Positions 4,600 to 55,612 of a stretch of 64,000 nucleotides of DNA are shown piece by piece; within the stretch, counting starts at the first letter, position 1; every line of letters begins with the position of its first letter. The notes under the pieces were generated by a model. The model had not been told where the DNA came from, made no database searches, and saw only the letters and a list, made by a program, of their open reading frames with translations. The stretch is from the IMG/VR virus record IMGVR_UViG_3300042892_003674. One strand, written 5' to 3'. This DNA is from a virus. Its lineage: Duplodnaviria > Heunggongvirae > Uroviricota > Caudoviricetes. Made by a program: the position numbers and the translations under genes.

Positions 4600-4953
4600 T
4601 TATTTGTTTAATATACTTGAAAGTTTAAAATGTCTTTGGTACTCTTTTATACATGCATCATTTTTCTTAATACAATTTAACATTTCTGCATTTGATTTAA
4701 TTTCTATTTTTTCTTCTATGTTTTCTTCCTTCTTTAGATGTGATGATACGTTATAGAAACTACTACTTCTATTCGGATAACCTTTTTTATCTAAATCAAA
4801 AGTTCCCTTAGATTTAATAAAATAAATTTTATCATTTTCATATAGAATTGAATAAATTCGGTCTGTTCCATGAAATACCCACGGATATTCTTTGGCCCAA
4901 TGGTTTATAACCCAACCGAATTTATATAAAAATATTGTATTTATCTCAAACAT
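4600..4953 (-). CDS. Hypothetical protein with C-terminal tag (RHFKLSSIL)
   Basis: ORF in a minus-strand operon. Confidence 0.6.
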   Translation of the reverse strand: MFEINTIFLYKFGWVINHWAKEYPWVFHGTDRIYSILYENDKIYFIKSKGTFDLDKKGYPNRSSSFYNVSSHLKKEENIEEKIEIKSNAEMLNCIKKNDACIKEYQRHFKLSSILNK

Positions 4954-4954
4954 A

Positions 4955-5602
4955 TTATCCTTTTAATAACAAGTCTGCTGCTGATGTAGCAGCAAATGCC
5001 ATTGGCTTTGCCCATACTCTAAACCCTAGTGCTCTTAACCAAGGTACATAACTTTTGTAAGCAATGAATGATTTATTTCTATGACCTTTCTCATATTGAG
5101 AACTTTCAAATGGGTTGAAATCAACGTGTAAGTCAATAACTTTTGTATCCATTAAATCAACATCTGTCATAACTAAGTTTCTAACAACTGCTTCTTCATT
5201 ATGTAATTCAATGTTTGCATATTCACCTGCACTTTTTTGTAAGTGATACTTATATTTTCTTTTTTCTAATTCAGGTAAGTCTCTCGTAACACCAACTTTC
5301 TCTAACTCGTCATTGATCCATGTACCAACATCGTGTAAAAATTGTGCTTCTTTATATAATCTCTCTTGAGTTTCTCTGATTTTTGGACATGATTCTCTAA
5401 AGAATACAACGTGTGCACCTTTTTTAACCTCGGTATCATAAATCATAACAGTTACAGCATAGATGGTTCTTCTACGAACTTGAATAGAGTCACAACCCAC
5501 AGATACAACTGATCCTGGTTCTCTCTCCATAATTTCTCTTATGTATTCTACTACGTCGGGGATTTGTTCTCCACCGAACTTTTTGAATTTACTCTTGTAC
5601 AT
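4955..5602 (-). CDS. RNase H-like YkuK (DUF458) family protein
   Basis: VGCDS, GAHV, RLYKEA, LHVDFN, KP.AFAATSAAD motifs. Confidence 0.75.
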   Translation of the reverse strand: MYKSKFKKFGGEQIPDVVEYIREIMEREPGSVVSVGCDSIQVRRRTIYAVTVMIYDTEVKKGAHVVFFRESCPKIRETQERLYKEAQFLHDVGTWINDELEKVGVTRDLPELEKRKYKYHLQKSAGEYANIELHNEEAVVRNLVMTDVDLMDTKVIDLHVDFNPFESSQYEKGHRNKSFIAYKSYVPWLRALGFRVWAKPMAFAATSAADLLLKG

Positions 5603-5828
5603 CTTCTACTATTGTTTTTTTAATTTTTAATATTGATTTTTGAACTATCTCTGGTGCAAAAACCATGAAACTACCATCTTCACAAGTCAGATCAAAACTT
5701 CCGTTTGAATAAAACTGTCTCGCGATTTTAATTATATTATCATAATCTTCTTTAGATACAATAAATTTCTTACCAATAAACTCACCGAACTCATTGATAA
5801 TAATCATTTGCATTTCAACTCTTCCCAT
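5589..5828 (-). CDS. Hypothetical protein
   Basis: 79 aa ORF overlapping the next gene in the operon. Confidence 0.6.
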   Translation of the reverse strand: MGRVEMQMIIINEFGEFIGKKFIVSKEDYDNIIKIARQFYSNGSFDLTCEDGSFMVFAPEIVQKSILKIKKTIVEDVQE

Positions 5829-5871
5829 ATGAATTATATATAGAAATAATTGTTTGTTGTTTTTAAATAAA

Positions 5872-5895
5872 AAAGGGTATCAAATGATACCCTTT
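5872..5895 (-). terminator. Intrinsic terminator
   Basis: AAAGGGTATC-AAAT-GATACCCTTT downstream of the AAA gene. Confidence 0.7.
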
Positions 5896-5901
5896 GTCTT
5901 A

Positions 5902-7038
5902 TTACTTAGTACTACCAGGCTTGTTGATTTTCTTGATAGTTACTAACAAATCTTGGAATTGTAACAAGAAACGTTTCAATTTTGGATTTGTCACATCTGC
6001 GATATTATCTAAGATGTGTAGTAAGTAAGCAGTTTTTTCATCATCACCTACTTGGTTCAAGAACTTCACACAGTTGTCAAGTTGTTTGTCAGATAACTTA
6101 GTGATATCCATTTCTCTTAAACTTTGGATAAGCTCAGAGTTTTTATCACGGTTGTATTTCTTCAAATCTTCCTTAACTTTTTCAAAGTTATTAAGTACGT
6201 CCATAATGTTGATATTCATCATATCTTCACAATATGTTACGAACTTCATTGCTGAGTTTCCGATGTAACCAGCAGCTACTTCTTTCAACAAAGGCAAGAA
6301 CTCTCTTGGAGAAGAACCCATACCGTAGTTTGCTACGATGAACTCGGACATCATAGTCCAAGAACGCGGGGTTGCGTACCCTTTAGCATTGTCACTTGTT
6401 TTGTACATATGCTCTGGGTGTGTGTTGATGTAAGACACAATCATTGGGTGTACATTTTCTGTTGCGAAATCGTCAACCCACTCTTTTACATCTAAGGTGT
6501 GGTTGATGTGTACTAAACGGTTGTTTAGAGCACTATCGAATTCTTCAACGTCTGTTCCATCTTCATCACCTAAGTTACCAGAAGACATCATAAGAACGTT
6601 TTCATTGAAACGGAAATCTGTACCGATTTGACGCTCTAACAAAATTTGAAGAGCCGCGTTACGAACTTGTTGAGAAGCTCTATTCAACTCTTCAAAGTGA
6701 ATGATTGTTGGCTGTTTGTTAGCTTCGATAGCCCAACGAGGAACTACGAAATCTAAACATTTCACCATTTTACCATCAACCTCAATTTCTGTTACGTTCG
6801 GATACAAACCAACGTCAGTTTCGTCAACCATAGACAAACGAATGTCCATATATCTAAATCCCATTTTGTCTGCGATTGAACGACCAATCGCAGATTTTGC
6901 GATACCTGGTTTAGAGGTAATATTAAGAACACCGTACTTTGCCCACATAATGGCCATATACTTTCTCTCTTTTAAAGTTAGTAATGCTAACTTGTCAACC
7001 ATTGTCTCAGGCATCAACTTTGAATTCTTGTCTGTCAT
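5902..7038 (-). CDS. MoxR-like AAA+ ATPase
   Basis: Walker A SKPGIAKS, Walker B IIHFEELNRA, SSGN, DSALNNR, ATPRSW. Confidence 0.85.
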   Translation of the reverse strand: MTDKNSKLMPETMVDKLALLTLKERKYMAIMWAKYGVLNITSKPGIAKSAIGRSIADKMGFRYMDIRLSMVDETDVGLYPNVTEIEVDGKMVKCLDFVVPRWAIEANKQPTIIHFEELNRASQQVRNAALQILLERQIGTDFRFNENVLMMSSGNLGDEDGTDVEEFDSALNNRLVHINHTLDVKEWVDDFATENVHPMIVSYINTHPEHMYKTSDNAKGYATPRSWTMMSEFIVANYGMGSSPREFLPLLKEVAAGYIGNSAMKFVTYCEDMMNINIMDVLNNFEKVKEDLKKYNRDKNSELIQSLREMDITKLSDKQLDNCVKFLNQVGDDEKTAYLLHILDNIADVTNPKLKRFLLQFQDLLVTIKKINKPGSTK

Positions 7039-7071
7039 ATTGAATTATTTATTTTTTATATTTTATTTCTA

Positions 7072-7079
7072 CAAATGTA
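7072..7079 (-). promoter_or_regulatory. Bacteroidota -7 promoter element
   Basis: TACATTTG upstream of the AAA gene. Confidence 0.65.
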
Positions 7080-15429: not shown

Positions 15430-15684
15430 ATGAGATACATAAAAGTTTTTGAGGATTTTAAGAAGAACAATCAAGAAGGTTCTTTAATTACAATTGAAGA
15501 TGTAGTTAAATGTATTAAGTCTGGTGGTGTAATTTATGCCACTATTATAAAGGATTTTGCCGAGAATGATCCTAAAGCTGCTTTAAGACCAGTAAATGTA
15601 GATAATGATGGTGAAGTAACCGTTGAGTTTGAAGGTAAAGAGTATGAGGTAAATCTAAGAAATATAGAGTCTATTGATTTTTAA
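15430..15684 (+). CDS. Small protein with MRYIKVFEDF motif
   Basis: Preceded by TAATATATA. Confidence 0.7.
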   Translation: MRYIKVFEDFKKNNQEGSLITIEDVVKCIKSGGVIYATIIKDFAENDPKAALRPVNVDNDGEVTVEFEGKEYEVNLRNIESIDF

Positions 15685-16142
15685 AACAATAGACTCTTTA
15701 GTTTAACATCCCTACTAAATGATTTTATATCATCTATATAAGTACATTCATACTTATCTAAAATTTCACTATAACAAGTCCATCTATCTTTTCTTTTTGA
15801 CCAAAAGGAAACCAATGGATCATCTGATCTACCAACTGGTACATACAAGTCTTTATTATTCGCTAAACAATAATCGACTAGATCTTCTATTTTAGAAGGA
15901 TCATTTATAAAGATGTCTAAGTGATAAACCATTACACAGTCTTGATCAATTTTAGAATAATCAAAATTCTCTGGTTTATTTATACCCCATTTTCTCATAC
16001 CAAGATTTTCTGGTAATTTATACTTATACAAAAGTAAAGTACTTAAATTATTCTTATTAAGAAGTCCATATATTGTAAGAAGATCTTTTCTTTCTTGGTA
16101 TTTACCTTCCCACGCGAACTTATCATCTATTCTATAAATCAT
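15681..16142 (-). CDS. Hypothetical protein with C-terminal tag (SRDVKLKSLL)
   Basis: 153 aa ORF. Confidence 0.65.
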   Translation of the reverse strand: MIYRIDDKFAWEGKYQERKDLLTIYGLLNKNNLSTLLLYKYKLPENLGMRKWGINKPENFDYSKIDQDCVMVYHLDIFINDPSKIEDLVDYCLANNKDLYVPVGRSDDPLVSFWSKRKDRWTCYSEILDKYECTYIDDIKSFSRDVKLKSLLF

Positions 16143-16763: not shown

Positions 16764-17288
16764 ATGAAACATTTAAAACAATTTGAAAACTGGACTACGA
16801 CTACTACTGAACCAAGTAAAGAAGTTGATGTTCAATATACTAGTAAAGATAAGATTACTTATGGTATCCACGATATAAACATATCAAGAAAAGGTATTAG
16901 AACAAAAGTAAAGGCAAAGTTTGATTCAGGTGCTCGTTCATCTAGTATTGACTTTAAAGTTGCTAAAAGATTAGGTATATCAGACGAGTTCTTAAAAACT
17001 TCTAAAGAGTTAGATTCAGTTGATTTAGCTAAATATACAAAAGATCCTAGAAACATATCTTTATCAGAACAAGGTAGAATTGAAAGAGGTTTTTACAAAG
17101 ATTTAAAAACACAATTTCCAGAACTATCAGATGTTAAGTTAGTTAAATCATCTTCTGGATTCTCAGTTAGAATGGTTATTAGAATTGATATAGAGTATAG
17201 TGGTAAAGTTATATCAACTGATGCAAATCTTCGTGATAGAACAGGATTGGCATGTGAAATGCTAGTTGGATTAAAAGATATGTTATAA
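16764..17288 (+). CDS. Retropepsin-like (RimK-associated 'ATP-dependent Zn protease') aspartic protease with MKHLKQFE motif
   Basis: AKFDSGARSSSID, VKSSSG...R, L.DRT.L...MLVG. Confidence 0.7.
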   Translation: MKHLKQFENWTTTTTEPSKEVDVQYTSKDKITYGIHDINISRKGIRTKVKAKFDSGARSSSIDFKVAKRLGISDEFLKTSKELDSVDLAKYTKDPRNISLSEQGRIERGFYKDLKTQFPELSDVKLVKSSSGFSVRMVIRIDIEYSGKVISTDANLRDRTGLACEMLVGLKDML

Positions 17289-17740
17289 TGAAGTATATAA
17301 AAATATTTGAAGATTTTGAATCTAATGAAGATAAAATTGAAGACTTAATACAATTATGTCTTGTTGAACTAACAGATAATAATTTTAAAGTTGAAGTTTC
17401 AACACCAGAATTTCCAAGAGTATTCAAGTCCAGTGTAAAAGATATTCGTATTTCTAAAGAGAGTTGGGATATTGATAAGGATAGATTATTTGATTACAAT
17501 GATGTAAAAGACCATCTTATTACATTTATAAAACTATTGAGTAAAGATTATGAGATAGATCATGTTTTCTTTATGGGAGATTGGAAGAAAAAATCTTGGT
17601 TAGATAAAAAGATTGATAAACTTAAAGGTTCTGGACCTAGTGGTTCAAGAGAAAGAGAAGAAGTTAGTGTAGAAGATTTAATTTCAGATAAAACTAAGAT
17701 AAATTTTCAACTAATTTCTATTACAATTAAAATTAAATAG
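17288..17740 (+). CDS. Paralog-family protein with MKYIKIFEDFE motif
   Basis: Shares VKDH.I.FI.LLSKDY.ID with 18069..18512. Confidence 0.7.
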   Translation: MKYIKIFEDFESNEDKIEDLIQLCLVELTDNNFKVEVSTPEFPRVFKSSVKDIRISKESWDIDKDRLFDYNDVKDHLITFIKLLSKDYEIDHVFFMGDWKKKSWLDKKIDKLKGSGPSGSREREEVSVEDLISDKTKINFQLISITIKIK

Positions 17741-17742
17741 AT

Positions 17743-18069
17743 ATGAAACACATAAAAGTATTTGAAGAGTTTGGTGGTAGAGAAAAAGAAGTAGTATTTA
17801 CTGGTAAAAGAAACCCAAGATTAGTAATCAAAGTTCTTAAATCACCTGATGGTAGAATAATAGAAATTGAGAATGAAACTGGAATTAGATTTCCATTTTC
17901 GGTTGGACAAATCTTAAATAGAAACGCAGAAGTTTGGGCTTGTAATAATAATTTCTTAATGGATGGTAAAGATATGTGTCCAGAAGAGAAAGTATTTGGT
18001 ATTAGAAAAAAAGATATACCACAAGGACACGAATTAAGAATGATGTTTCCTGGAAAATTTAGAAAGTAA
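17743..18069 (+). CDS. Hypothetical protein with MKHIKVFEEF motif
   Basis: 108 aa ORF. Confidence 0.7.
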   Translation: MKHIKVFEEFGGREKEVVFTGKRNPRLVIKVLKSPDGRIIEIENETGIRFPFSVGQILNRNAEVWACNNNFLMDGKDMCPEEKVFGIRKKDIPQGHELRMMFPGKFRK

Positions 18070-18512
18070 TGAAGTTTTTAAGAAAATTTAATGAAGGTAA
18101 AGAACCAGATAAATCTGAAATTTCTGATTTAAGTAAAGATTACTTGGCTTATTTATTGGATGATGATTATACTTGTCATGTTGAGACTGGTTATGAATGG
18201 TCTCATACAACAGAAAAGATTACAAGTAAATTAGTCACTAAAATAATTTTTCTTAAATATAAGAATAATTCTAGCAAAACTGAAAAATTTTTATGGGATA
18301 ATGTTAAAGATCATTTTATATCATTTATACATTTATTGAGTAAAGATTACAATATAGATAATTTTGATTTTATGTGGGTAGGACTTCAAGAAGGAAGTAT
18401 TGTTCCAGTTTTAAGATCTAGTAAAAGATCATTACAACAAGTTTTAGATGATGATAATTGTGATTTTGCACCGTTAGAAAGAGTGACCGTAGTAATAAGT
18501 AAGAAAGAATAG
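18069..18512 (+). CDS. Paralog-family protein with MKFLRKFNE motif
   Basis: Paralog of 17288..17740. Confidence 0.7.
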   Translation: MKFLRKFNEGKEPDKSEISDLSKDYLAYLLDDDYTCHVETGYEWSHTTEKITSKLVTKIIFLKYKNNSSKTEKFLWDNVKDHFISFIHLLSKDYNIDNFDFMWVGLQEGSIVPVLRSSKRSLQQVLDDDNCDFAPLERVTVVISKKE

Positions 18513-18554: not shown

Positions 18555-20120
18555 TTATTTCTCATTCGCTTCAAGAACGATTTGTTTTACTTTACCGTTT
18601 GTACAAGCAATCGGACATTTAGTACCAACAGAGATAATAAGTGTTCTACCTTTGATACCTTTGAAGTTCAATTGGTCTGTGTAACCGTCTGTTAAAATTA
18701 CCGTGTTAAAGTCATTAAAATGTTCTCTAACGTAATCAATCGCAGGGTTCAAACAAGTACCACCTAAACCTTTAATAGGAATACTTTCAAGTTTTCTCTT
18801 ACTCTTAATGTTCTCAACCCAATTTACTTGTGTATCAGACTCCATCAAGTTGATTTCTATATCATTACGATATACATAAGATAAAACTCTTTCAAAGGTT
18901 CCTTGACCACCCATCGAACCTGATGTATCTAAGATAACATTGATTTTGGTTTTCACCTTTCTAGTACCTTTAAGACCAGCGATTTGTCGTCTGTTTGGTT
19001 TAACGATAGTTTTTTGTTTCACAGTACCGAAAATCAAGTTAGACACAGCTCTCTTAATTTCTTTAAGGTAATCTTTTCTTTTCTTTCTTAACTTGTTAAG
19101 AGTAGTCTCAACATTACCCGCAGATAAACCACGAGCAGCTAATCTTTCCATAACGTCTCTTACCATCGCTTCACGCATCTCTTCTGGAACGTCGTCTCCC
19201 ATGTGTTTATCTAAATACTCACCTGTACCGTTTTCGTAATCTTCAAAGATTTGCTCAGTTGACCAAGTATCGATCGCATCACCATCTTTACCAGGGTTTT
19301 TACCGTAAGGACCGTATGATGGTTTACCAGTAGAGTCTTTACCAGACTCACCACCATCTTTACCAGTTCCACCACAATCTGGACATGGTTCACCTTGGCC
19401 TTGACCATCACCTTGTCCTTCACCTTGACCGTCACCTTTTTGGTCTGATTGTCCATCACCTTGACCTTCGCCTTGCTCTTGACCATCTTTACCTTTTCCT
19501 TGACCTTCTGATTTATCTTGTGGTTGACCATCACCTTCACCAGGCTCTTGACCTTTACCTTTATCAGATTTATCTTGTGGTTTTTTACCACTACCACTAC
19601 AAGTAGAACATTCGCATTTAGATTTTTGTTCTTTATTCCACTCGTCTTTTTTCTCTTTCATCCACTCGTATAACTCTTCAAAGATAAGTTTACCTTCATA
19701 TTCTTTTGGAACAAAAAGAGCCATATTCTTACCATCTGGAGATTTAGGAATTTCAACGAAGTTATGTGAAATATCTTCCCATATAATATGATTGATAATC
19801 ATATCTTGTACAATGTTAGACAATTTGTGATCGTATTGACCAGTGATTGTTCTTTTTGGGTGGTTGAAAAGTAAGTGGAAATCCTCGTGAAGAGTAATAA
19901 AGTTTACTTCTTTTTGAGACATATCTGCTAGGAACTTTGGAGAATAGTAAAAGTTCATACCCTTTGTACCTACGTTTACACCACAAGTACCTATACTATC
20001 ATTCTCGTGAAAATTGATGTGTAGATTAAACTCTCCGTAGTATGGGAGGTTCACTTTTGTGTCGATAAGCATTGTTTGGATACTAGCTAATAGTTTCTCG
20101 TGAATGTTTTTTATTACCAT
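18555..20120 (-). CDS. DUF2201-type metallopeptidase-vWA protein (MoxR partner)
   Basis: HEDFH (HExxH), D..IN, G/Q-rich linker, MIDAS DTSGSM, GGT, TDG; promoter TATCTTTG at 20152-20159. Confidence 0.85.
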   Translation of the reverse strand: MVIKNIHEKLLASIQTMLIDTKVNLPYYGEFNLHINFHENDSIGTCGVNVGTKGMNFYYSPKFLADMSQKEVNFITLHEDFHLLFNHPKRTITGQYDHKLSNIVQDMIINHIIWEDISHNFVEIPKSPDGKNMALFVPKEYEGKLIFEELYEWMKEKKDEWNKEQKSKCECSTCSGSGKKPQDKSDKGKGQEPGEGDGQPQDKSEGQGKGKDGQEQGEGQGDGQSDQKGDGQGEGQGDGQGQGEPCPDCGGTGKDGGESGKDSTGKPSYGPYGKNPGKDGDAIDTWSTEQIFEDYENGTGEYLDKHMGDDVPEEMREAMVRDVMERLAARGLSAGNVETTLNKLRKKRKDYLKEIKRAVSNLIFGTVKQKTIVKPNRRQIAGLKGTRKVKTKINVILDTSGSMGGQGTFERVLSYVYRNDIEINLMESDTQVNWVENIKSKRKLESIPIKGLGGTCLNPAIDYVREHFNDFNTVILTDGYTDQLNFKGIKGRTLIISVGTKCPIACTNGKVKQIVLEANEK

Positions 20121-20720: not shown

Positions 20721-21213
20721 ATAAAATACTATCTAACTTTCTACCTATTGTTTTATAGATTGTAAGATTTTGATGTGGTTCATTCTTTCCGATTGGTGGT
20801 TCTATTATGATACCACCCTCTTGTTCATAAAGTTTATAGTACTTGTTTACTTTTTTTTCGGTTACTCTTTTATTACCTCCCCAACCCCAAGATCCTTTTA
20901 TTACATAAATGGTTGCACATGGGAACGTTCTTTTTACTACTTTAAATAATTCTTTGATATTTCCGGTCTCTGCTCTAAAATTATTATTTGTTCCTATACA
21001 TAGTATAATATTTTTTATATCAGGTGATGTTTTGTAATTCAAAACCATTGAAGTTAGTTTATCAACTCCTATTCCACCTTTCCATAATGATCTCACTCTT
21101 TCTACCTTAGTTGAATTTTTATCAATGTAAGGTGTTTGTGAATCCCCTATTATGAGATTCTGAGAATGACATAATAGGGGAATAAAATATAATATGTATA
21201 ATAGTTTCTTCAC
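20719..21213 (-). CDS. Secreted SGNH/GDSL-like hydrolase
   Basis: Signal peptide, IIGDSQ, G, IGTNN, ..PH. Confidence 0.6.
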   Translation of the reverse strand: MKKLLYILYFIPLLCHSQNLIIGDSQTPYIDKNSTKVERVRSLWKGGIGVDKLTSMVLNYKTSPDIKNIILCIGTNNNFRAETGNIKELFKVVKRTFPCATIYVIKGSWGWGGNKRVTEKKVNKYYKLYEQEGGIIIEPPIGKNEPHQNLTIYKTIGRKLDSIL

Positions 21214-22946
21214 TATGATAGAACTGAAGTGATTTTATCGTCTCTTAAAACAGCAGTAACCGTACTTAAATCGTGATTTTTAATCTGATATAATTCAGTT
21301 CCTTCTGGGAAGTTTACAATAACTTCTGCATAATTATCGTCAAATTGATGTTGAATGTAATCATCTAAATCAAATTCATTTGAATATGTACCATCATCTA
21401 ATCTAGCTGAAATTCCAACTGTACCAACAAATCCAGGAATGATATAAGCATCAACAATGTCTGTGTAACCTTCATGATCTTCATCAGCTAACCAGGTCTT
21501 ATACTCATTGAGGGTTATTACCGAACCAAATCCGCTACAAGAGATATACTTTTTAGTGTCTTTTCCACCAACATAAAGATCAAATCCACTTTCATCATCA
21601 GTTACTTGAAAATCATTACCATCACCAAGGATAACAATCGTTTCTGGTTTGTCAAATGTTCTCAAAGTTTTTTGTTTAAACTCTGGGTTCTCTACTTTTT
21701 TAGTAAGTTCTCTAGTCGGATGAACTGTGTTAGGTTCAGTTTTTGATTCAATAAGAACAAACTCACCATCAGAACCTTCCGCACCACCAGTTTTCACTTC
21801 ATATGAATTAGAACCGGCAATCTTGTCAAATTCTGGTTCTTGTTCAAAACCTTTCTTCAACATTTTTGCAGTAAGTTGGTGCCAGTTTAATTTACCTCTG
21901 TATTCAAATTCACCTTCTGCAGTAACCGTAAGCTTACCAAATAAGTCAACCGATTGAACTAATTTATAAATTTCTTTAGTAGCTTCTTTATCTTCAAAGT
22001 TATCCTTCTTAGCGATAGAGATTTTGTAGAAACTTTCAGTTAAGTGTTTAATCAAAACATCTTTTTTAAGTTTCATTAGGTCAGAAATTCTACCTACTAA
22101 TTCAGTATCAGAGTCAGATAAACCAATTTCACTTTTTTGTTCATCAGAAACTAAGAAAACATATCCATTAGGAGTTGCGTTAGGAACTAATGTTTCTAAA
22201 CGAGTTTCTAAAATAGAAAGTGCTTCAGAAGATTTCTCTGCATTAGCTTCAGCATGTTTAGCTTCTGAATTATACCTTTTAATCTCTGTCTCAGTTTTTT
22301 CAATACGTTCTTTCAACTCATTGATTTTATCTTCATTCATTTTGTTGAATTGCTCTTCCATATAAGTAAGAGCGATTGGTTTTTCAACAACAACTTCCTC
22401 GATAACTTGTTCAACTACCGGTGTTTCGTCCTCAATGGTTTCTATAGTTTCACCTGATAATAACATATCAAGAAAACTCAAACCTTTTTCAGATAATTCA
22501 GTAGTTTCTTCTTTTTGTTTTTCTTCTTCAAAAAGGTTCATAAGTTTATCATAAGGTTTAACGTGTTCTACTTCAAGAAAACATTTATAACCATCTTGAT
22601 CTTCAAATTCTAAACCAGCAACAATAAATTTTTGAGCATACCCACTAACATCAGTTGAGTCAATTTCATTGATCAAACGTTGTTTCATTGCATTATCTGC
22701 TAAGTTAGTACCTTCAACTTCTTCAAAGTTGATAGTTCCTTCATCACAAATTGTTATTTTGAATTTAGCACGTTCTAACATACCAGATAGTTTTCTACCT
22801 TCGATAAAGGCAGTTTCTCTGATTAAACGTATTTTCTTACCAGAAATGGCAGAAACGAAACTTAAAAACTTTCGTTTAGGTTTGAAATCACCGATAACTG
22901 GTTCTTTAACGATTATCTCTTTTTCTTCAATATTATTCTCAATCAT
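21213..22946 (-). CDS. Large acidic/coiled-coil protein with C-terminal tag (LRDDKITSVL)
   Basis: 577 aa; TATATTTG promoter at 22972-22979. Confidence 0.7.
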   Translation of the reverse strand: MIENNIEEKEIIVKEPVIGDFKPKRKFLSFVSAISGKKIRLIRETAFIEGRKLSGMLERAKFKITICDEGTINFEEVEGTNLADNAMKQRLINEIDSTDVSGYAQKFIVAGLEFEDQDGYKCFLEVEHVKPYDKLMNLFEEEKQKEETTELSEKGLSFLDMLLSGETIETIEDETPVVEQVIEEVVVEKPIALTYMEEQFNKMNEDKINELKERIEKTETEIKRYNSEAKHAEANAEKSSEALSILETRLETLVPNATPNGYVFLVSDEQKSEIGLSDSDTELVGRISDLMKLKKDVLIKHLTESFYKISIAKKDNFEDKEATKEIYKLVQSVDLFGKLTVTAEGEFEYRGKLNWHQLTAKMLKKGFEQEPEFDKIAGSNSYEVKTGGAEGSDGEFVLIESKTEPNTVHPTRELTKKVENPEFKQKTLRTFDKPETIVILGDGNDFQVTDDESGFDLYVGGKDTKKYISCSGFGSVITLNEYKTWLADEDHEGYTDIVDAYIIPGFVGTVGISARLDDGTYSNEFDLDDYIQHQFDDNYAEVIVNFPEGTELYQIKNHDLSTVTAVLRDDKITSVLS

Positions 22947-23001: not shown

Positions 23002-23409
23002 CTATTCTACTTCTTTTTCGTCAATTAGATCAATTCTAATATCACGAACTTCATCTTTTGTAAACACTTCACTAACTTTATTATCTTGAGAATCGACAAT
23101 GTTTTCTGTTTCGATGTAAGTATCACCGGTTTCAGTAATTAAGCTTAATAAGGTCTCATTTTTAACTTCTTTATCATCTTGAACGTCAAATATTTCCATA
23201 ATTTGTTTTTCAAAAGGAATGAAGTTGTGTTTAACGACTAAGTTTTCGTCGTCATGTTTGTCTAAGCAAAGTGTAAGTAATAAATATAACTCTCTATCCG
23301 AAAGTTCATTCATTCTTTCTATTTGACTGTAAACATTGAAATGTTTGTAGATGTCCATAAATAAATCTGAAACAACCACCGTTTTTGTTTTTTCTCCCAT
23401 AATTCTCAT
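23002..23409 (-). CDS. Hypothetical protein, tag-like C-terminus (RDIRIDLI)
   Basis: 135 aa ORF. Confidence 0.65.
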   Translation of the reverse strand: MRIMGEKTKTVVVSDLFMDIYKHFNVYSQIERMNELSDRELYLLLTLCLDKHDDENLVVKHNFIPFEKQIMEIFDVQDDKEVKNETLLSLITETGDTYIETENIVDSQDNKVSEVFTKDEVRDIRIDLIDEKEVE

Positions 23410-23411
23410 TT

Positions 23412-23888
23412 TTAAATTCCTAATTTTTCTAATTGATAATCTCTATAATCTTGTTTAGAGACAGTTCCTAATTCATAGGCTCTTTGAAAAAATACCTCAA
23501 ATACACTTTCGTATATAGGTTCATTCTCAACTCTTTCTAACTGTCTAGCAACCATAGCTCTATTGATGGCTTTATGTTCATCAGTAATTCTAATAGCTTG
23601 TGTTCTGGCTAATCTAATAGCTTTTTCCTCGTCACCAGCACATTTAGTGAAGATGTCTCTTACTCTAGTATAATTCTTTGTATATTCTGCTTTTGTTTGA
23701 CCATTGTAGTCTCCGTTTTGGTTTTTAGGCATAAATTCTAGTGTTATTAGTTTACATTCGAGCATCACTTCAAATTGTTGTTTTGCTCTCATACCTTTAT
23801 ATTCTTTTAATAAGGAATATTTATTTGATTGTTGATACTTAATCCAAAAGTAATACAAATCCGTTAGATCTACAAATTTTTTATTCAT
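23412..23888 (-). CDS. Hypothetical protein, tag-like C-terminus (RDYQLEKLGI)
   Basis: 158 aa ORF. Confidence 0.65.
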   Translation of the reverse strand: MNKKFVDLTDLYYFWIKYQQSNKYSLLKEYKGMRAKQQFEVMLECKLITLEFMPKNQNGDYNGQTKAEYTKNYTRVRDIFTKCAGDEEKAIRLARTQAIRITDEHKAINRAMVARQLERVENEPIYESVFEVFFQRAYELGTVSKQDYRDYQLEKLGI

Positions 23889-24639
23889 TATTTATAACTT
23901 CATCAATTCTTGCTGTTCTACTCCAAGTTAGTTGGTCTTCTTTCATAAGGGTTGAATTACCATATCTAATAATAGTATCTGGTTTATCATTTAGTATCTC
24001 ACTAAGAATATATTCGATCGTGTATTTATTTCCTGTTTGTTGATACTCATATTTTAAAACAAGATAATCGATTGAACGATTTGTGACATCTGAAACAACT
24101 TCTGATATTTTAAATTTAGGTTCAATAATTAGAAAGATTAAGGCATCTTCAATAAACTTTACATAACCCATTATGTCACCTAAATTACCTTCAATCATAT
24201 AATCATACTTTGTATAGTCTTTTTTATATAAAGTATGGTACTCATTTTTAAAATCAATTGTAAGACTATCAAGGTTTATATCACGGTATGTACCAACAGT
24301 TTTGCCAAAACCATCATTTAGATAAACTTTAGTTTGTAAATTACTATGTTTGATTATATTGTAGATTTCATGAAACTTATCAACCATAGAGTTCTCTATT
24401 GAGAAAACTAAGTTATATCTTATATGTGGTTCTTTTACAACATTACCTGAATTATTTGTGTAAAGATTTCTACCCCAACTTTGTTGTGATACTTCCGGTC
24501 TTGTTATATCTGGAGAGTATTCAATTGCAGGAAATATTGTATTTGAATTATATTGTGCTTTGATAAAAATACCTAGTTGATGATCTATAAGTCGATCATT
24601 CCAAGACATTATTTCTCTATCACTTAGTGATGTTATCAT
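23881..24639 (-). CDS. Hypothetical protein, tag-like C-terminus (RTARIDEVI)
   Basis: 252 aa ORF. Confidence 0.65.
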   Translation of the reverse strand: MITSLSDREIMSWNDRLIDHQLGIFIKAQYNSNTIFPAIEYSPDITRPEVSQQSWGRNLYTNNSGNVVKEPHIRYNLVFSIENSMVDKFHEIYNIIKHSNLQTKVYLNDGFGKTVGTYRDINLDSLTIDFKNEYHTLYKKDYTKYDYMIEGNLGDIMGYVKFIEDALIFLIIEPKFKISEVVSDVTNRSIDYLVLKYEYQQTGNKYTIEYILSEILNDKPDTIIRYGNSTLMKEDQLTWSRTARIDEVINNE

Positions 24640-26074: not shown

Positions 26075-26542
26075 TTAAACTAATAAACATAATTGATAAT
26101 CTCTACCAATAGAGATTTCATTTTTCCAAGTATCTAGTCTCCTAACGAGATTAGTGTGTAAGTGATTGTATAATTCTCTGTTTATTCTTTCTGGTGAACC
26201 AACTAACTCCTCAAATAGTGTGATTAAGTCAGATGTCATCCACACTCCATCCATACTTCTAATAAAGAAATGTTTCTCATTGGCTCTAATAATAAAGTTG
26301 ATAATATCTTTCATTTCAATATAAATGTGATCATTGACATGCCATTTATCTCTCCATTGATTAACTTGTGGATCTAATATTGATTCTAAAGTTTTATCAT
26401 AAGAGATAGGTTTGGGTCTAAATCCAATATATTTATCCCACTTCTCTTTAATATAAGAAGGATCACAATCAATGAAGTCATTATGTGATTTGTGGAATGC
26501 GAAGCTGAACCTAATAAGGTTGTCGATTTGATTTTTGTTCAT
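26075..26542 (-). CDS. Hypothetical protein, tag-like C-terminus (RDYQLCLLV)
   Basis: Likely start MNKNQ at 26542; TATATTTG at 26549-26556. Confidence 0.65.
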   Translation of the reverse strand: MNKNQIDNLIRFSFAFHKSHNDFIDCDPSYIKEKWDKYIGFRPKPISYDKTLESILDPQVNQWRDKWHVNDHIYIEMKDIINFIIRANEKHFFIRSMDGVWMTSDLITLFEELVGSPERINRELYNHLHTNLVRRLDTWKNEISIGRDYQLCLLV

Positions 26543-26589
26543 AATAAACAAATATAGGAATAAAATATATAATAACAAAAAGTTTTATA

Positions 26590-27916: not shown

Positions 27917-28162
27917 TTAATTTCCTAATATTTGATTTAATTTTTCTTCTCTTATTTCGTCTATTGTTTCAAAATAGTTAGTAAAGTTTTCCTCAGTGCC
28001 AATCCAATCACAAAAATCAAATTGGTAAATCTTTACTCCTTCTTCGTGTTGTCTTAATAAGACAACATAGTATTCACCTTCTTCAAATTGAAAGTATGGT
28101 TGTGTTAAGTTCCAATAGAAACTTTCCTTACATCTACATCTTTCTTTACTTATCTCCTTCAT
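27917..28162 (-). CDS. Small protein with C-terminal tag (REEKLNQIL)
   Basis: 81 aa ORF. Confidence 0.65.
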   Translation of the reverse strand: MKEISKERCRCKESFYWNLTQPYFQFEEGEYYVVLLRQHEEGVKIYQFDFCDWIGTEENFTNYFETIDEIREEKLNQILGN

Positions 28163-28529
28163 TTAATACATTTTCTATTTTTAAATTTCTTTTATATTGT
28201 AAAGTTACATCATCAAAAATAAATGAGTTTAAATCAATCATTTCTTTACTTAGAATAGTTTCCTGTTCTATATCAATTTTTTCATCATCACTTATGTAAA
28301 AATCTAAATAAGTATAAGTAGTTGTTGTTTGATGTGATTTAAAGAAACGAGTACAAATGATGTCACCTTTTTTTAAATCTAATGTATAGGTTAAATCATC
28401 CCAATCATTTATATTACGTAAGTCTCTTTCTCTAGCATTGTCCAATACAGATATAGTAAAGTCATTCAACATTTCATAATAATGAAATTGTTGATACTTC
28501 TCATGAATATATCTTGGTAAGTATTCCAT
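28146..28529 (-). CDS. Hypothetical protein with C-terminal tag (RNLKIENVL)
   Basis: 127 aa ORF. Confidence 0.65.
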   Translation of the reverse strand: MEYLPRYIHEKYQQFHYYEMLNDFTISVLDNARERDLRNINDWDDLTYTLDLKKGDIICTRFFKSHQTTTTYTYLDFYISDDEKIDIEQETILSKEMIDLNSFIFDDVTLQYKRNLKIENVLNEGDK

Positions 28530-28734: not shown

Positions 28735-28974
28735 ATGGAGGATTTTTTATTGAAGAATGGATTTTTATATGTAAAAGATTTTGATGAATGGGAAAAGAAA
28801 ACATTCGAGGGTAAGATGATTGTTTTTAAGAGAAATTTAATTAGTAGATGGATATTATCATATGAAGATGGTGATAATTATTTACATGAATTAAAGTCTG
28901 GAAGTGAGGATGATGTGTTACTTTCAATTAAAGAATATGAGAGAGATAGAAAGATTAGAGAGATTTTAGGATAA
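28735..28974 (+). CDS. Small protein with C-terminal tag (RDRKIREIL)
   Basis: 79 aa ORF. Confidence 0.65.
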   Translation: MEDFLLKNGFLYVKDFDEWEKKTFEGKMIVFKRNLISRWILSYEDGDNYLHELKSGSEDDVLLSIKEYERDRKIREILG

Positions 28975-30863: not shown

Positions 30864-31112
30864 ATGGATATAATAATTAAATATCATGAAAAAACATCTG
30901 GTGAAAATCAGATGTTTCTTTTAGATTTAACTAAACATTATCAAATTGTGCCAATAAATACCCCACAATCAAAAGTAGATTTATCTAAATATGATGGTAA
31001 AATTGTTTATGGTATTTTTGAAGGATATGGACGTATTGATGGTAACTCTATTTTTATAATAGATACTTTACAAATAGATAGAGATTTAAAAATAAATGAG
31101 ATTTTAGAATAA
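30864..31112 (+). CDS. Small protein with C-terminal tag (RDLKINEIL)
   Basis: 82 aa ORF. Confidence 0.65.
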   Translation: MDIIIKYHEKTSGENQMFLLDLTKHYQIVPINTPQSKVDLSKYDGKIVYGIFEGYGRIDGNSIFIIDTLQIDRDLKINEILE

Positions 31113-31432
31113 TGAGAGATCGTGCCTGGAGAAGATATAAACAAGATGTGAAGTTGTTACAACGCCTTCATAATATTATATTTACCTATGGTTGGGGTCA
31201 TAAAGATGAGAATGGAGTATATCTCGTAAATCCCTCAATAAAAAGTTTTATAGGTTCTGATTTATATTGTAAGTTTAAAACACACACAACTGATAGACAC
31301 GACTCTCGTTATAAAACAAAATACTCACCAAATAAACAAAACTCTTACTACCGTGATAATAACAAAGATGGTAGAAGAGAATTAGATAAAGTTATTTTTT
31401 TTAAAATGTTAAAAGAATATGGAATTAAGTAA
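31112..31432 (+). CDS. Basic hypothetical protein
   Basis: 106 aa ORF. Confidence 0.6.
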   Translation: MRDRAWRRYKQDVKLLQRLHNIIFTYGWGHKDENGVYLVNPSIKSFIGSDLYCKFKTHTTDRHDSRYKTKYSPNKQNSYYRDNNKDGRRELDKVIFFKMLKEYGIK

Positions 31433-31940
31433 TCTAATACCAAATAAATCAGATGATTGGAATATAAAAAAAGGAACTCTTTTTTATAAGAAACTCCAAA
31501 ATATACCAATGGCTAAAATTGATGATGAGATAGTTTATGTTTTTTTAGAATGTTCTATACCAAGAGTAGTAATTGATTTAGTTAAACATCTTATGAAGAT
31601 TGGGGTAGAGTTTTACTTTCTACCACCATCTTGGTCACATCCAGCTACCATTATTGATAACTCTATTGTAATAAAACATTACTTCACATCTTATTCAAAA
31701 GACAAGTTTTTTATAGGTTTTAATAAGATAGGTTTTGATATGATGGGTAACCTAGTGAATTGGTGTAAGAAAGAAGATTGTATTCCTTTGATAAAAGAGA
31801 ATTATAATGAGATAAATAAAAAAGTTCAAAAGACTTATTACGATTGGTATGTGAATAAGGAAGTAAGTAGTTATTCTGATGATATAAGAGAAGAGTTTAG
31901 AACTTTATATCGTGATATACAAATCTCTATGATTTTATAA
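31419..31940 (+). CDS. Hypothetical protein, tag-like C-terminus (RDIQISMIL)
   Basis: 173 aa ORF. Confidence 0.65.
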   Translation: MELSNLIPNKSDDWNIKKGTLFYKKLQNIPMAKIDDEIVYVFLECSIPRVVIDLVKHLMKIGVEFYFLPPSWSHPATIIDNSIVIKHYFTSYSKDKFFIGFNKIGFDMMGNLVNWCKKEDCIPLIKENYNEINKKVQKTYYDWYVNKEVSSYSDDIREEFRTLYRDIQISMIL

Positions 31941-31984: not shown

Positions 31985-32365
31985 ATGGCTAAAAAATGGA
32001 CAACAAATACAACTGCTAATGCTAATACTTCAATCGGTACTTCAATCGGTTATGCAGCGGGTACTAATAATAATATAATAATGGCAAATGGAACTGTAGC
32101 CATAGGATCTGGAGTGTATTCTGGAACTTCTGCAACTATAACACCACAAAAAGTAACTTATCATGTATTAGGTGAAGATATAGAAGTAAGTGGCTACTAT
32201 GATACAAATCTTATTATGATTATAGCAACTTTAAATATATTAAAGAAACCTTATTATGATGAATTAAAAAAGAATAGGTTTAAATTTCCAGAAGAAATAG
32301 ACAATTGTTTAAGAATTGGATTCAGAGATAATTTAATTGATGATTTAATGAAACCTAATTTTTAA
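31985..32365 (+). CDS. Hypothetical protein with G/T/A/N-rich fibre-like N-terminus and tag-like C-terminus
   Basis: SIGTSIGYAAGTNNNII.ANGTVAIGSG ... FRDNLIDDLM. Confidence 0.6.
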   Translation: MAKKWTTNTTANANTSIGTSIGYAAGTNNNIIMANGTVAIGSGVYSGTSATITPQKVTYHVLGEDIEVSGYYDTNLIMIIATLNILKKPYYDELKKNRFKFPEEIDNCLRIGFRDNLIDDLMKPNF

Positions 32366-34950: not shown

Positions 34951-35321
34951 ATATGGCTCATGAGTGGGCAACACTTTCACATTGTACAAGAAAACAAGTA
35001 GGTGCAATAATAGTTAAAAATGGTATGATAGTATCAGATGGTTACAATGGGACACCTACAGGGTTCGATAACTGTTGTGAGACGAATGATGAAACTAATT
35101 GGTTCGTTATTCACGCAGAAGCAAATGCTATCTTAAAATGTGCTAAACACGGTCAATCGTGTGATGGTGCTACATTATATCAAACACATTCTCCGTGTAG
35201 AGATTGTTCTAAATTAGTTCTTCAATCAGGAATTAAAAGATTAGTTTATCACGAAGATTATAAAGATATAACTGGTGTAGAGTTTTTAAGAGAAGCTGGA
35301 GTAGAAATAGTTAAAATATAA
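34908..35321 (+). CDS. dCMP deaminase
   Basis: GYNGTP, HAEANAI, SPCRDC. Confidence 0.92.
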   Translation: MEKKKQERYDQVYLNMAHEWATLSHCTRKQVGAIIVKNGMIVSDGYNGTPTGFDNCCETNDETNWFVIHAEANAILKCAKHGQSCDGATLYQTHSPCRDCSKLVLQSGIKRLVYHEDYKDITGVEFLREAGVEIVKI

Positions 35322-35785
35322 TGTATAGTAGAATTATAAACGGAATAAACCAAACTTATAAAGGTTCGTTAGTACCCATCGATAATTATTGTTTGGAAGG
35401 ATTAGTAGCCTTTGTAGAAAACTCACGATTACTTGGAGGAACTGGTATTACTGCTAAATTTGACTTATCATTATGGATGAATGATTTTCTTATTAAACAT
35501 GTTGATAAGATTTCTTATACTACTATAACACCAAGTTTTTCTATACAGAGTTTAGAAGATGGTAGACTAACTGAAAAAGTTATCGCAGTTAAAAGTATAA
35601 CATTCAATAGTGATGCTGAACTTGATGATTTCTTCGAAAATCAAATAGGTAAAAAACTAGTGGTATACACCATCGGTAAGTTTATTGATTTAAGTAATAT
35701 GGCAATTTCTTATGAGTTAAGATATGCTGATATAACTTTAAAAAGTGAACAAAGAGAAATTAAATTAAATAAAATACTACAATAA
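35321..35785 (+). CDS. Hypothetical protein with C-terminal tag (REIKLNKIL)
   Basis: 154 aa ORF. Confidence 0.65.
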   Translation: MYSRIINGINQTYKGSLVPIDNYCLEGLVAFVENSRLLGGTGITAKFDLSLWMNDFLIKHVDKISYTTITPSFSIQSLEDGRLTEKVIAVKSITFNSDAELDDFFENQIGKKLVVYTIGKFIDLSNMAISYELRYADITLKSEQREIKLNKILQ

Positions 35786-39074: not shown

Positions 39075-39443
39075 CTATTCATTTAATATCTGATTTAATT
39101 TTTCTTCACGTTCATCTTGTAAGGTATATAACATAACATCTTTATGTTCAACCCAGTTATTTATATAACTATTTTTAGTTCGTACTCTATATTCAAGTTT
39201 ATAACTACTTTTAATACTTGGTATTATGTATCTTTCATTTATATCTATGATAAATCCAATATGATAAAAATCTAACTTAATATCATCAATCTCTAATACA
39301 AACTTAACTTTTACACGATCACCCTTTGAGAACTTTAAATTGTTGTCTGTATTTAAAGACTGCGAGGTCTTTTGCTTTGGCTTCAATCTCTGTATCAAAG
39401 TCAAGACCAAATGTTTTAATTTCTTCATAAATATAATCTGCAT
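39075..39443 (-). CDS. Hypothetical protein with C-terminal tag (REEKLNQIL); start uncertain
   Basis: KFSKGDRVKV...; overlaps the 3' end of uvsE. Confidence 0.55.
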   Translation of the reverse strand: MQIIFMKKLKHLVLTLIQRLKPKQKTSQSLNTDNNLKFSKGDRVKVKFVLEIDDIKLDFYHIGFIIDINERYIIPSIKSSYKLEYRVRTKNSYINNWVEHKDVMLYTLQDEREEKLNQILNE

Positions 39444-53081: not shown

Positions 53082-53087
53082 TAAATC

Positions 53088-53540
53088 ATGGAAAAAGAAG
53101 AACAAAAAGAAATTTTAGAAGAAACTGTTGTTGAAGTAACAGTAGAGCAAAAACTACAAGAGTCCGAGGACAAATACTTACGTCTTTATGCAGATTTTGA
53201 AAACTATAAAAGAAGAGTTCAGAAGGATAAAGAAGAATTAGTATTAAACACAAAAACAAAAATGTTATCATCTGTTATTGATATGGATAATGACGTTACA
53301 TTAGCATTGAAATCAATGGATAAAGTTGATAAAGGAGTTTTACTAATTGCACAAAAATTAGAAACTTTCTTAAAGTCACAAGGTATTGAACCAATTCAAA
53401 CCGAAACCTATGACGATGAGTTACACGAGGTTATTAGTGTAACTGAATCAGGTGCCAAAAAAGTAATAGACGTAGTATCTAAAGGTTATACATTGAATGG
53501 TAAACCTTTCAGATATCCAAAAGTTGTTTTAGGAAAATAG
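53088..53540 (+). CDS. grpE: Nucleotide exchange factor GrpE
   Basis: YLRLYADFENYKRR, D..LHE.I, V..KGY.LNG...R..KVV. Confidence 0.9.
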   Translation: MEKEEQKEILEETVVEVTVEQKLQESEDKYLRLYADFENYKRRVQKDKEELVLNTKTKMLSSVIDMDNDVTLALKSMDKVDKGVLLIAQKLETFLKSQGIEPIQTETYDDELHEVISVTESGAKKVIDVVSKGYTLNGKPFRYPKVVLGK

Positions 53541-54061
53541 TGAATACTAAACCTTCCATATTAGAGATAAATCAAAACCCATCGTATAGAGAGATAATTC
53601 TTGATACGTTGTGTCAAGGTATTAAAAATACATCTGAGTTTAGAGATTTATTAGAATATGTAATTGATAATAAACTTTACTTATTTGAAGGTTTTGAGTT
53701 CAAAGGAACTTTATATGATGGTGATGATGATCTATTAGATCTGATTCTACCATCAATTAGAAGAGTGTGGGGTAAAGTTTATATTACACCACCTTCTATG
53801 TTAAGGGAAAAAAGATTACAATTATTTGAATTATTATTTGATATAGATGAATTTTTAGATTATTTGGTTTTAATACTACCAAAGTCTTCAAATAAGTTAG
53901 AAATATTTAATAATTTAGATAGAACACAAGAAACATTACAACTTATAGTTGATAATTATATTGCAGGTTTATTTCATCGAGCTTATAATTCAGAAACAAT
54001 TGATGAAGATATGAAAGTTGCAACAAGAGATAAAAATTTAAAGAAACTAATAAATGATTAA
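53540..54061 (+). CDS. Hypothetical protein (capsid N-terminus-like segment) with C-terminal tag (RDKNLKKLI)
   Basis: GTG start; ILPSIRRVWGKV. Confidence 0.6.
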   Translation: MNTKPSILEINQNPSYREIILDTLCQGIKNTSEFRDLLEYVIDNKLYLFEGFEFKGTLYDGDDDLLDLILPSIRRVWGKVYITPPSMLREKRLQLFELLFDIDEFLDYLVLILPKSSNKLEIFNNLDRTQETLQLIVDNYIAGLFHRAYNSETIDEDMKVATRDKNLKKLIND

Positions 54062-54368
54062 TTGGTATGTACAAATATCAGAAGAAGCACCAATTGGGTT
54101 TAACTCTGATATTTACTTAGGTAATGTTATAGATACCGCTACTCCATTTATGGATTACTTCTGTAAAAGATTATCAGAAATAGAAAATTGGATGATAGAA
54201 GATGCGGAGAAAATATTTAAAGATATAATTGATGAAATGCCAATTATGTCTTCAATTATAAATAATACTGAATTTATTATAAAGTATAATAGATGGGTAA
54301 GTATTAGACTGACGGATACAACCAAGCAAATATATAGAGATATAAAATTAGAAAAAATACTAACATAA
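54054..54368 (+). CDS. Hypothetical protein with C-terminal tag (RDIKLEKIL)
   Basis: 104 aa ORF. Confidence 0.65.
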   Translation: MINWYVQISEEAPIGFNSDIYLGNVIDTATPFMDYFCKRLSEIENWMIEDAEKIFKDIIDEMPIMSSIINNTEFIIKYNRWVSIRLTDTTKQIYRDIKLEKILT

Positions 54369-54371
54369 ATT

Positions 54372-55439
54372 ATGGCAAAAGATTATTATGACGTACTAGG
54401 TGTTGATAGAAATGCAACAGAAGATGAGATTAAGAAATCTTATCGTAAAATGGCAATGAAATGGCATCCTGATCGAAATCCGGATAACCCAGAAGCAGAA
54501 GTAAAATTTAAAGAAGCTGCAGAAGCTTATGATGTACTTTCTACTCCAGATAAGAAATCAAATTATGATAGATTTGGATCGGCAGATGGTGGAGGTAATC
54601 CATTCGGTGGTAATCCATTCGGTGGCGGTCGAGGTCACGGTTTTAATATGGATGATATTTTCAGTCAATTTGGAGATATATTTGGAGGTGGATTTGGTGG
54701 TCAAAGACAACAACAAAGACAAGCGAAAGGTTCTGATTTAAGAATAAAAGTATCTTTAACTATTGAAGAAATAATCAATGGTGTTACAAAGAAATTAAAA
54801 TATAAAAGAAACGAACCTTGTTCTCCTTGTAATGGTAAAGGTGGTTCTGATGTAAGAACATGTATTCCCTGTAATGGTTCTGGACATAGAACTGTAATAC
54901 AGAATACACCATTTGGGCAAATTAGAAATTCATCTACTTGTCCTGATTGTAATGGTACTGGTAATCAAATAACAAATAAGTGTAATGTTTGTCACGGACA
55001 AGCAACTTTACCAAAAGAACAAACAGTTGATGTTGAAATACCTAAAGGTGTTGGAAACGGAATGCAAATGACAATGGCAGGTTTTGGTAATCATGTTTTG
55101 AATGGTGTTCCTGGTGATTTATATATTGTCTTTGATGAAATTAGAGAAATGTATTTCAGAAGAGAAGGTGGTAATATTATAACAGATGTAGAAATTTCAG
55201 TTATTGATGCGATAATTGGTGCTAATGTAACAGTTAAGTCTCCACATGGTGATGTAATAGTTGCTATTGAACCAGGTACAGAACACGGTAAAATTATAAG
55301 AATAAATGGTAAAGGTATTCCAGATATTCACGAGGGTATGGGAAGTTTAATAATAAATGTTAAAATTAGAATACCAAAGTCTATAAATCTTGAGCAAAAA
55401 GCAATGTTGGAAAAACTAAAAAATGCTGGTAATTTTTAA
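54372..55439 (+). CDS. dnaJ: Chaperone DnaJ
   Basis: J domain HPD, G/F region, four CxxCxGxG repeats. Confidence 0.96.
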
Positions 55440-55612
55440 TGTCAAGATTATCATTTGATACCAAACCAAGTAATCCTAATGATGGTGACTTGTATTATGA
55501 TAAAAGTACTCGTATAAATAGTATTTACTCAAAAGGTCAATGGTTTGAGTTAAAAGTAAGTTTATCAAAGAATTTAGAAAGAAAAGAAAAAATAAAAGCC
55601 ATATTAAAATAA
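55439..55612 (+). CDS. 57-aa protein: fibre-like P..P..GD.YYD repeat plus C-terminal tag (not in ORF track)
   Basis: [57 protein letters not shown]; ATG overlaps the dnaJ stop. Confidence 0.7.
   Translation: MSRLSFDTKPSNPNDGDLYYDKSTRINSIYSKGQWFELKVSLSKNLERKEKIKAILK

Follow-up and report, generated by a model that had tools for sequence, protein, structure and literature searches.

The DNA analyzed here is a 64,000-nucleotide (nt) stretch, referred to as the window, of the IMG/VR virus record IMGVR_UViG_3300042892_003674. It is T4-like megaphage DNA with a GC content of 29.8 % that shares synteny with the 635-kb genome LR745206 (W01) and is also related to LR756502 (W02), LR756504 (W04), and LR756501 (W03). 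These four genomes, rebuilt from public records, formed our comparison set together with two IMG/VR contigs, the 476-kb G001 and the 373-kb G006, the latter being a complete relative with terminal repeats. The phage DnaK is closest to Bacteroidota and TAnnTTTG promoter boxes lie upstream of the non-late genes, which makes a Bacteroidota species the most likely host. A short peptide of the pattern R-[DEN]-x-K-[IL]-x-x-[IL]-[LG], here called the tag, recurs near the C terminus of otherwise unrelated proteins encoded in the window. Its proposed reader is encoded on the negative strand at 5902..7038, a MoxR-clade AAA+ ATPase of 378 amino acids with an extra helical domain at residues ~273-375. The putative partner of this ATPase lies on the same strand at 18555..20120, where, according to Pfam and alignment, a metallopeptidase (DUF2201_N, intact HExxH) is fused to a vWA domain with an intact metal-ion-dependent adhesion site (MIDAS) in a protein of 521 amino acids.

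Tagged genes of the window

The original prediction had listed about 19 window proteins that share the tag on dissimilar bodies, and all the quoted peptides were present in the sequence, at or close to the open reading frames (ORFs) named. The strict pattern matched 6 C termini and 0 of 18,810 internal positions in a motif-blind set of 97 window ORFs. A medium pattern matched 12 C termini, compared with a mean of 0.07 and a maximum of 2 in 2000 shuffles of the last 20 residues; the proposed check against shuffled termini thus came out in favor of the motif. In a held-out test, a position-specific scoring matrix (PSSM) trained on LR745206 alone was applied to the window genes at a cutoff of at least 11 and retrieved 14 of 95 genes (0.07 expected), which together with the ORF at 39075 accounted for 15 of the 19 listed proteins. 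All 15 bodies were singletons, as anticipated. Three further genes carry degenerate copies of the tag and have orthologues in related phages that score as tagged, but the peptide at 34738 proved unsupported, lying far from the end of a doubtful ORF that starts with TTG and overlaps both neighbors. Searches of Pfam and PHROGs were uninformative on the tagged proteins of the window and yielded little on 150 tagged proteins of LR745206.

The tagged genes lie on both strands. On the negative strand, they comprise 4600..4953 (117 amino acids; PSSM score, 21.1), 15681..16142 (153 amino acids; 19.7), 23002..23409 (135 amino acids; 13.9), 23412..23888 (158 amino acids with an L-G-I ending; 22.9), 27917..28162 (81 amino acids; 27.9), and 28146..28529 (127 amino acids; 22.1). 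The ORF at 39075..39443 (24.9) belongs here as well, although its first ATG overlaps the next gene and translation probably begins further downstream. Since the 15681..16142 gene is convergent with its neighbor, its tag is not a downstream start signal. On the positive strand, we found 28735..28974 (79 amino acids; 22.7), 30864..31112 (82 amino acids; 27.0), 31419..31940 (173 amino acids; 18.5), 35321..35785 (154 amino acids; 27.3), 53540..54061 (11.0, with orthologues at 15.6 and 22.9), 54054..54368 (104 amino acids; 27.6), and 55439..55612 (57 amino acids; 11.7), whose LR756502 orthologue is tagged. The degenerate copies are those of 23881..24639 (negative strand, 252 amino acids; loose pattern, LR745206 orthologue at 16.3), 26075..26578 (negative strand; loose pattern, orthologues at 13), and 31985..32365 (positive strand, 126 amino acids; 7.4, three orthologues at 18-24). 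An extra copy, absent from the first list, is internal: it lies at residue 66 (codons 3308-3334) of a 115-amino-acid protein encoded on the negative strand at 3182..3529, scores 20.2, and is kept in 8 relatives.

The longest tagged protein, of 577 amino acids (21213..22946, negative strand), was assigned by PSSM, homologues, and structure prediction. Its tag is predicted to be a terminal helix (residues 560-576), and R568 is invariant in 45 homologues. The protein gave no fold match, and atlas leads stayed below threshold. It was considered as a hub for the other tagged proteins and rejected, being absent from LR756504 and LR756501.

Sequence, placement, and distribution of the tag

Across genomes, the tag has R at position 0 (99 %), D/E/N at +1, K at +3 (70 %), I/L at +4 (99 %), I/L at +7, and L/G/I at +8, and a weak S/T-x-x-E helix cap precedes it. 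LR745206, LR756502, and G001 encode 193, 187, and 126 tagged proteins, respectively, or ~20 % of their genes, with a median length of ~106 amino acids. In LR756502, 156 of 972 genes scored at least 11 with the matrix from LR745206 alone, compared with 1.7 expected; a search with a degenerate DNA pattern was too noisy for such counts. The tag profile matched no PDB sequence, and DUF6576 and the UVR motif, which resemble the tag in a different register, were rejected as its relatives.

Many tagged genes are tightly coupled to the one that follows (median gap, −4 nt), as might be expected if the tag reflected a promoter, a ribosome site, or a recombination site at the DNA level. However, codon choice within the tag is close to that of the whole genome, with every synonymous codon in use, AGR and CGN for Arg included. 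In 77 of 174 orthologue pairs, the two Arg codons are different but synonymous, and the tag is also found on convergent genes (37 of 171). These codon and gene-order data indicate that selection acts on the peptide and not on the DNA. Moreover, the 193 tagged bodies of LR745206 fall into 191 families, so that a DNA-level element and a single expanded gene family are both barely credible.

The tag may be followed by 0 to 20 residues, and each genome has ~20 copies at internal or N-terminal positions; a terminal degron that needs a free C terminus is therefore unlikely. The tag copies of the DinG-like and UvsW helicases are insertions of 11-14 residues relative to the LR756501 and LR756504 orthologues, so the statement that no carrier is an enzyme, true in the window, does not hold genome-wide. 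A shrunken capsid-protein fragment has the tag as an insertion in a loop. The h-x-x-h-h spacing (h, hydrophobic) and the internal copies in two helicases are what a sliding-clamp-binding motif of the T4 gp45/PIP-like kind could look like; the phage clamp is encoded at 139078-139866 of LR745206. Yet the C-terminal clamp motif of the polymerase lies in another register (h-x-h-F), scores below 0 with the PSSM, and does not change with the tag dialect in LR756504. No tag is present on the polymerase, ligase, RNase H, or late sigma either, and clamp binding is very improbable.

Three lines of evidence suggest that the tag is helical: the AlphaFold2 (AF2) model, the lack of any proline between positions 0 and +8 in 380 tags, and the preceding S/T-x-x-E, which resembles an N-cap. 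The mean hydrophobic moment showed no peak at 100 degrees. A helix with such spacing, placed terminally on unrelated cargo, resembles the encapsulation peptides of microcompartments and might self-associate, thereby sorting proteins into a phage condensate or compartment. We consider this quite improbable, as an Arg that is never replaced by Lys within a genome better fits a specific pocket, the tagged genes are not late, and a shell or nucleus protein did not turn up, although no search for a shell was run.

The timing of the tagged genes was judged from their promoter boxes. Another tag, M-K-[YH]-[IL]-K-x-[FY]-E, sits at the N terminus of ~10 % of gene products and is associated with the late box TAATATATA; in the window, it is found at 8612, 15430, 16764-18512, 46658, and other genes. 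The two tags never occur together (0/92 in LR745206, with 18.7 expected, and 0/8 in the window), in agreement with the original prediction. Among genes with their own promoter space, the late box lies upstream of 5 of 135 tagged genes versus 75 of 107 N-terminally tagged genes. The C-terminally tagged genes carry host-type promoters and, by this measure, are non-late.

Among the recognizable bodies are major-capsid fragments of three kinds, a fragment of the prohead protease, and copies of the ClpC M-domain, as expected for baits or adaptors. The tagged fragments of the major capsid protein and prohead protease are located at 291407, 207176, 255010, and 460435 of LR745206 and at 415901 of LR756504, and they are candidate decoys for host capsid sensors. 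The capsid-protein fragments include a region that we take to be equivalent to the T4 Gol peptide. A membrane anchor is predicted in ~5 % of the tagged proteins.

The tag occurs in dialects, with K at +1 in LR756504 (~139 proteins), T at +1 in LR756501 (~25), and a neutral residue in the contig G010. No tag was found in Lak-C1, LR756500, LR756508, MA9V-1, PTm1, or MaF61, or in the complete relative G006 (4 matches versus 3.2 expected). Genes for MoxR and the vWA-peptidase are among those present in all tagged genomes yet absent from G006, and 21 further records showed the same pattern once fragments were allowed for. Both are also absent from G007, G013, Lak-C1, LR756508, MA9V-1, and PTm1; LR756500, which has no tags, encodes a distant MoxR in which no reader domain was detectable. 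DnaK, one of the hubs named in the original prediction, is present in the untagged megaphages Lak and LR756508, which speaks against this candidate.

Several further features were recorded in these genomes. LR756501 (e.g., on its segment L136) has a second, unrelated tag, D-P-Y-G-E-E-x-W, on ~85 proteins, both late N-tagged and C-terminal, that was found in none of the other genomes. In the otherwise untagged G006, three adjoining small genes (138685-139756; L188:229-973) end in [DE]-x-R-[LI]-L-L-[MA]. At 737-2371, the window encodes a protein whose family has expanded to ~7-18 domain hits per genome and has a conserved N-S-C-M motif and a weak PcfJ-like lead; this family looks enzymatic, occurs in tagged phages, and is absent from G006. 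The segment 40388-46647 holds a cluster of signal-peptide proteins, possibly a host-like outer-membrane or secreted module, that is inserted relative to LR745206 and has no orthologue there.

MoxR and the vWA-peptidase as proposed reader

The MoxR ATPase has conserved G-x-x-K-S and F-E-E motifs, and in its AF2 model (pLDDT 94), residues 278-372 form a helical domain of their own. Its fold neighbors are NorQ (9qh4), CbbQ (6l1q), and the dynein/Rea1 AAA modules. The vWA domain of the partner is of the DUF2201 type with the D-x-S-x-S motif plus T and D conserved, and the partner gene adjoins MoxR in G010 and in the contigs L363 and L369. Stand-alone copies of the proposed reader domain lie directly downstream of MoxR in two other contigs (L367:1450-1767 and L368:2125-2544; E values of 5e-16 and 3e-15), and weaker candidates occur in LR756501, LR756504, and L074. 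In the window, 3989-4582 encodes a bifunctional-nuclease (BFN) domain with a UVR motif, and the order MoxR/RNase H-like/BFN-UVR is conserved, also in the distant contig L364.

We modeled a three-chain complex of the vWA-peptidase, MoxR, and the last 32 residues of the 35321..35785 protein with a 58-row tag alignment. The model scored 0.65 (runs at 0.68, 0.65, and 0.50), and the best of three controls scored 0.20; in the benchmark, 58 of 80 solved complexes but only 2 of 110 mismatched pairs attained the score mark. The runs shared at least 75 % of contacts, the partner pLDDT was at least 61, and the least-error contacts fell exactly on tag positions 0, +1, +3, +4, +7, and +8. In the model, the tag sits on MoxR residues 340-375 of the C-terminal domain, away from the MIDAS of the vWA domain, which may bind the target instead. 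The Arg at position 0 contacts residues 340/343/344/368/372, including the conserved acidic D344; position +1 contacts 369/372 (K369/N372); and positions +4, +7, and +8 lie in a groove formed by L343, 358/359 (L358/359), L365, I368, and 369. Residues 21-24 of the vWA-peptidase touch the upstream flank of the tag. A memory of a solved complex is unlikely to account for this outcome, because the solved relatives NorQ and CbbQ match MoxR residues 7-275 only. The model thus supports binding of the tag to MoxR.

Residues 344 and 369 were then compared across phages. Position 344 is D or E in every MoxR sequence of a tagged phage (13 of 13) but in only 61 of the 129 members of the family. Before any look-up, we stated the rule that a distant MoxR with acidic 344 lies among tagged genes, and the contigs were fetched afterwards. 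Under a relaxed pattern, [RK]-x-x-K-[IL]-x-x-h, 6 of 24 genes in L361 and 3 of 13 in L363 were tagged in new dialects. In L369, a phage locus of 41 % GC, the ending R-x-x-K-[LI]-x-x-[VI] is carried by 20 of 55 genes (shuffle mean 0.5, maximum 4). Here, the pattern was fixed before the locus was seen, and the MoxR protein fits the stated rule but was absent from the written list. The tag arrays flank the vWA-MoxR operon on both sides, and the locus had been retrieved by MoxR homology alone. Four contigs with non-acidic 344 had 0 of 54 genes tagged, and five others held too few genes to inform; in all, six of the twelve contigs fetched were uninformative for their short length. As for residue 369, the +1 position of the tag is acidic in 56-77 % of copies where MoxR has K/R (window, LR745206, LR756502, G001, G008, and G009) and basic in ~55 % where MoxR has S (LR756504) or M (L369).

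Several points weigh against MoxR as the reader. When the vWA protein was replaced and MoxR kept, the score dropped to 0.20 though most contacts are on MoxR, which indicates either a composite site or context-dependent confidence. The controls comprised none with MoxR replaced or with a scrambled amphipathic helix, and a three-chain job with custom alignments falls outside the calibration. The relaxed pattern was made after L361 and L363 had been seen, so that L369 alone is a clean test; L363 is marginal (3 versus a shuffle maximum of 3, with K in place of R). Contigs with non-acidic 344 hold fewer small orphan genes, and four with acidic 344 were too short to tell. The +1/369 rule fails in LR756501 (R369, T at +1) and L361 (mixed). 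The presence and absence of MoxR are confounded with phylogeny, and this pattern was used only to pick the test. Finally, the MoxR-vWA-peptidase pair exists in many jumbo phages without described tags (PMC7824862).

Alternatively, the tag might bind a conserved host factor or another phage hub (DnaK, SSB, RNA polymerase, or the membrane), with MoxR as a mere clade marker. The host-type promoters of the tagged genes without late box, the members with predicted membrane anchors, and the many other genes that share the clade distribution are compatible with this. Nevertheless, another hub is rather unlikely, since it leaves unexplained both the arrays retrieved through MoxR around the operon of a distant 41%-GC phage and the modeled contacts on exactly the conserved tag positions, and DnaK is also encoded where tags are lacking.

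A protease was the other candidate destination, the tag acting as a tether or degron for ClpC/ClpP lacking the ClpC N-terminal domain (NTD), for M16, or for host ClpC/Lon, like the SspB XB peptide or SPO1 Gp53. Indeed, LR745206 (ClpC at 423224-425329; L026:3224-5329), LR756502, G001, and LR756504 encode NTD-less ClpC together with ClpP in one to three copies, and the UVR motif of ClpC is copied in some tagged bodies. Of 50,697 phage records, only five contain an M16 peptidase, and all five are tagged; Gp53 binds ClpC via an Arg and hydrophobic residues (PMC6873191). However, the untagged G006 has NTD-less ClpC (60 %), ClpP (64 %), and M16 (69 %), the tagged LR756501 does without ClpP, and the internal copies speak against a terminal degron. 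Neither the phage Clp nor the M16 proteases track the tag across genomes, and a protease as the destination is unlikely. A ClpS-like gene accompanies NTD-less ClpC in LR745206, LR756502, LR756504, and G001, and the M16 (insulinase/MPP-family) peptidase of LR745206 (310766; L020:10766-11875) has an intact HxxEH motif and is common in IMG/VR megaphage contigs.

Proposed function and known systems

Collectively, the complex model and the comparative sequence data suggest that the tag probably docks unrelated phage proteins onto the phage MoxR ATPase, with the vWA-metallopeptidase bordering the site. A docking label shared by many proteins and read by a single hub, one of the roles inferred in the original prediction, is supported, and of the hubs named there, MoxR/vWA is the best supported. 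According to this proposal, a portable helical plug of 9-14 residues, borne by 100-190 unrelated early proteins per genome, would seat in a groove of the clade-specific C-terminal helical domain of MoxR. By analogy with CbbQ/CbbO, NorQ/NorD, and RavA/ViaA, the MoxR hexamer would spend ATP on remodeling bound complexes, and the fused zinc peptidase, given its intact HExxH, may cleave afterwards. Least certain is the idea that most tagged proteins serve as interchangeable adaptors or baits, whose variable body would grip a host or phage target and whose constant tag would deliver it to the motor, in early infection, for host takeover and counter-defense. If MoxR is the reader, the odds moderately favor adaptors or baits, and there is a substantial, if smaller, chance that the tagged proteins are direct clients, themselves remodeled or turned over. 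We tentatively favor recruitment over destruction because the bodies are small and variable and include decoy-like fragments and membrane-anchored members, and because essential-looking helicases carry internal tags. A more far-reaching version is tentative: a eukaryote-style adaptor system in which one MoxR unfoldase and a vWA-zinc peptidase, reprogrammed by 100-190 small interchangeable adaptors or decoys, the capsid, prohead-protease, and ClpC fragments among them, through a co-evolving nine-residue tag, might dismantle host defense sensors and other targets.

If true, this would give about one-fifth of the genes in some of the largest known phages, nearly all of them now "hypothetical," a function in common, and the MoxR-vWA-peptidase pair of jumbo phages would gain a client set and a docking site. 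The tag could serve as a one-line filter for candidate host-takeover and anti-defense proteins in uncultured megaphages. A nine-residue tag and a 100-residue reader with lineage-shifting specificity could also make a small orthogonal recruitment tool.

NorQ-NorD, CbbQ-CbbO, and RavA-ViaA serve one or few clients, which they engage via the vWA protein. NorQ and CbbQ are the nearest structures to MoxR residues 7-275, and the MIDAS motif is likewise intact in the partner described here, but these systems are without the ~100-residue C-terminal domain that takes the tag in our model. A MoxR ATPase and vWA-metallopeptidase pair with the same two genes in the same layout, the vWA domain being fused to an N-terminal metallopeptidase, was described in group 2.2 jumbo phages and proposed to act in virion assembly (PMC7824862). 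No client tag was reported for that pair, whereas the ligands predicted here are non-late, number 100-190 per genome, share a short motif, and exclude the late N-terminal tag.

The vWA-MoxR ternary conflict systems also extend a MoxR-vWA core by variable partners; they combine it with effector-associated domains and peptide-processing modules, and they associate a zincin peptidase with small, rapidly evolving proteins that share a conserved peptide of the FxSxx-COOH type at the C terminus (Kaur et al. 2020, PMC7159879). Those systems are bacterial and operon-local and employ folded homotypic adaptor domains or one precursor peptide, in contrast to the phage-wide linear motif found here on about a fifth of the proteome and also inside helicases. 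Pfam recognized no VMAP component or effector-associated domain near the MoxR or vWA gene, no dedicated profile search having been made.

The tethers of other AAA+ motors (SspB XB peptide/ClpX and SPO1 Gp53/ClpC) are alike in joining a variable body to a constant short dock for the accessory domain of the motor, but the motor and motif differ here, and the bacterial examples are single proteins rather than >100. The F-box/SOCS-box viral adaptors are similar by analogy. The capsid targeting sequence of T4 is likewise a short portable tag on unrelated phage proteins; however, it is N-terminal, late, and cleaved in the head, whereas the present tag is C-terminal or internal and non-late, and the corresponding role falls here to the mutually exclusive N-terminal tag. 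In the literature covered, which left out most subscription journals, no paper was found that describes a phage tag spread across the proteome or the reader domain proposed here. The parts of the system come from a known family, and their organization into tag and reader matches no described kind.

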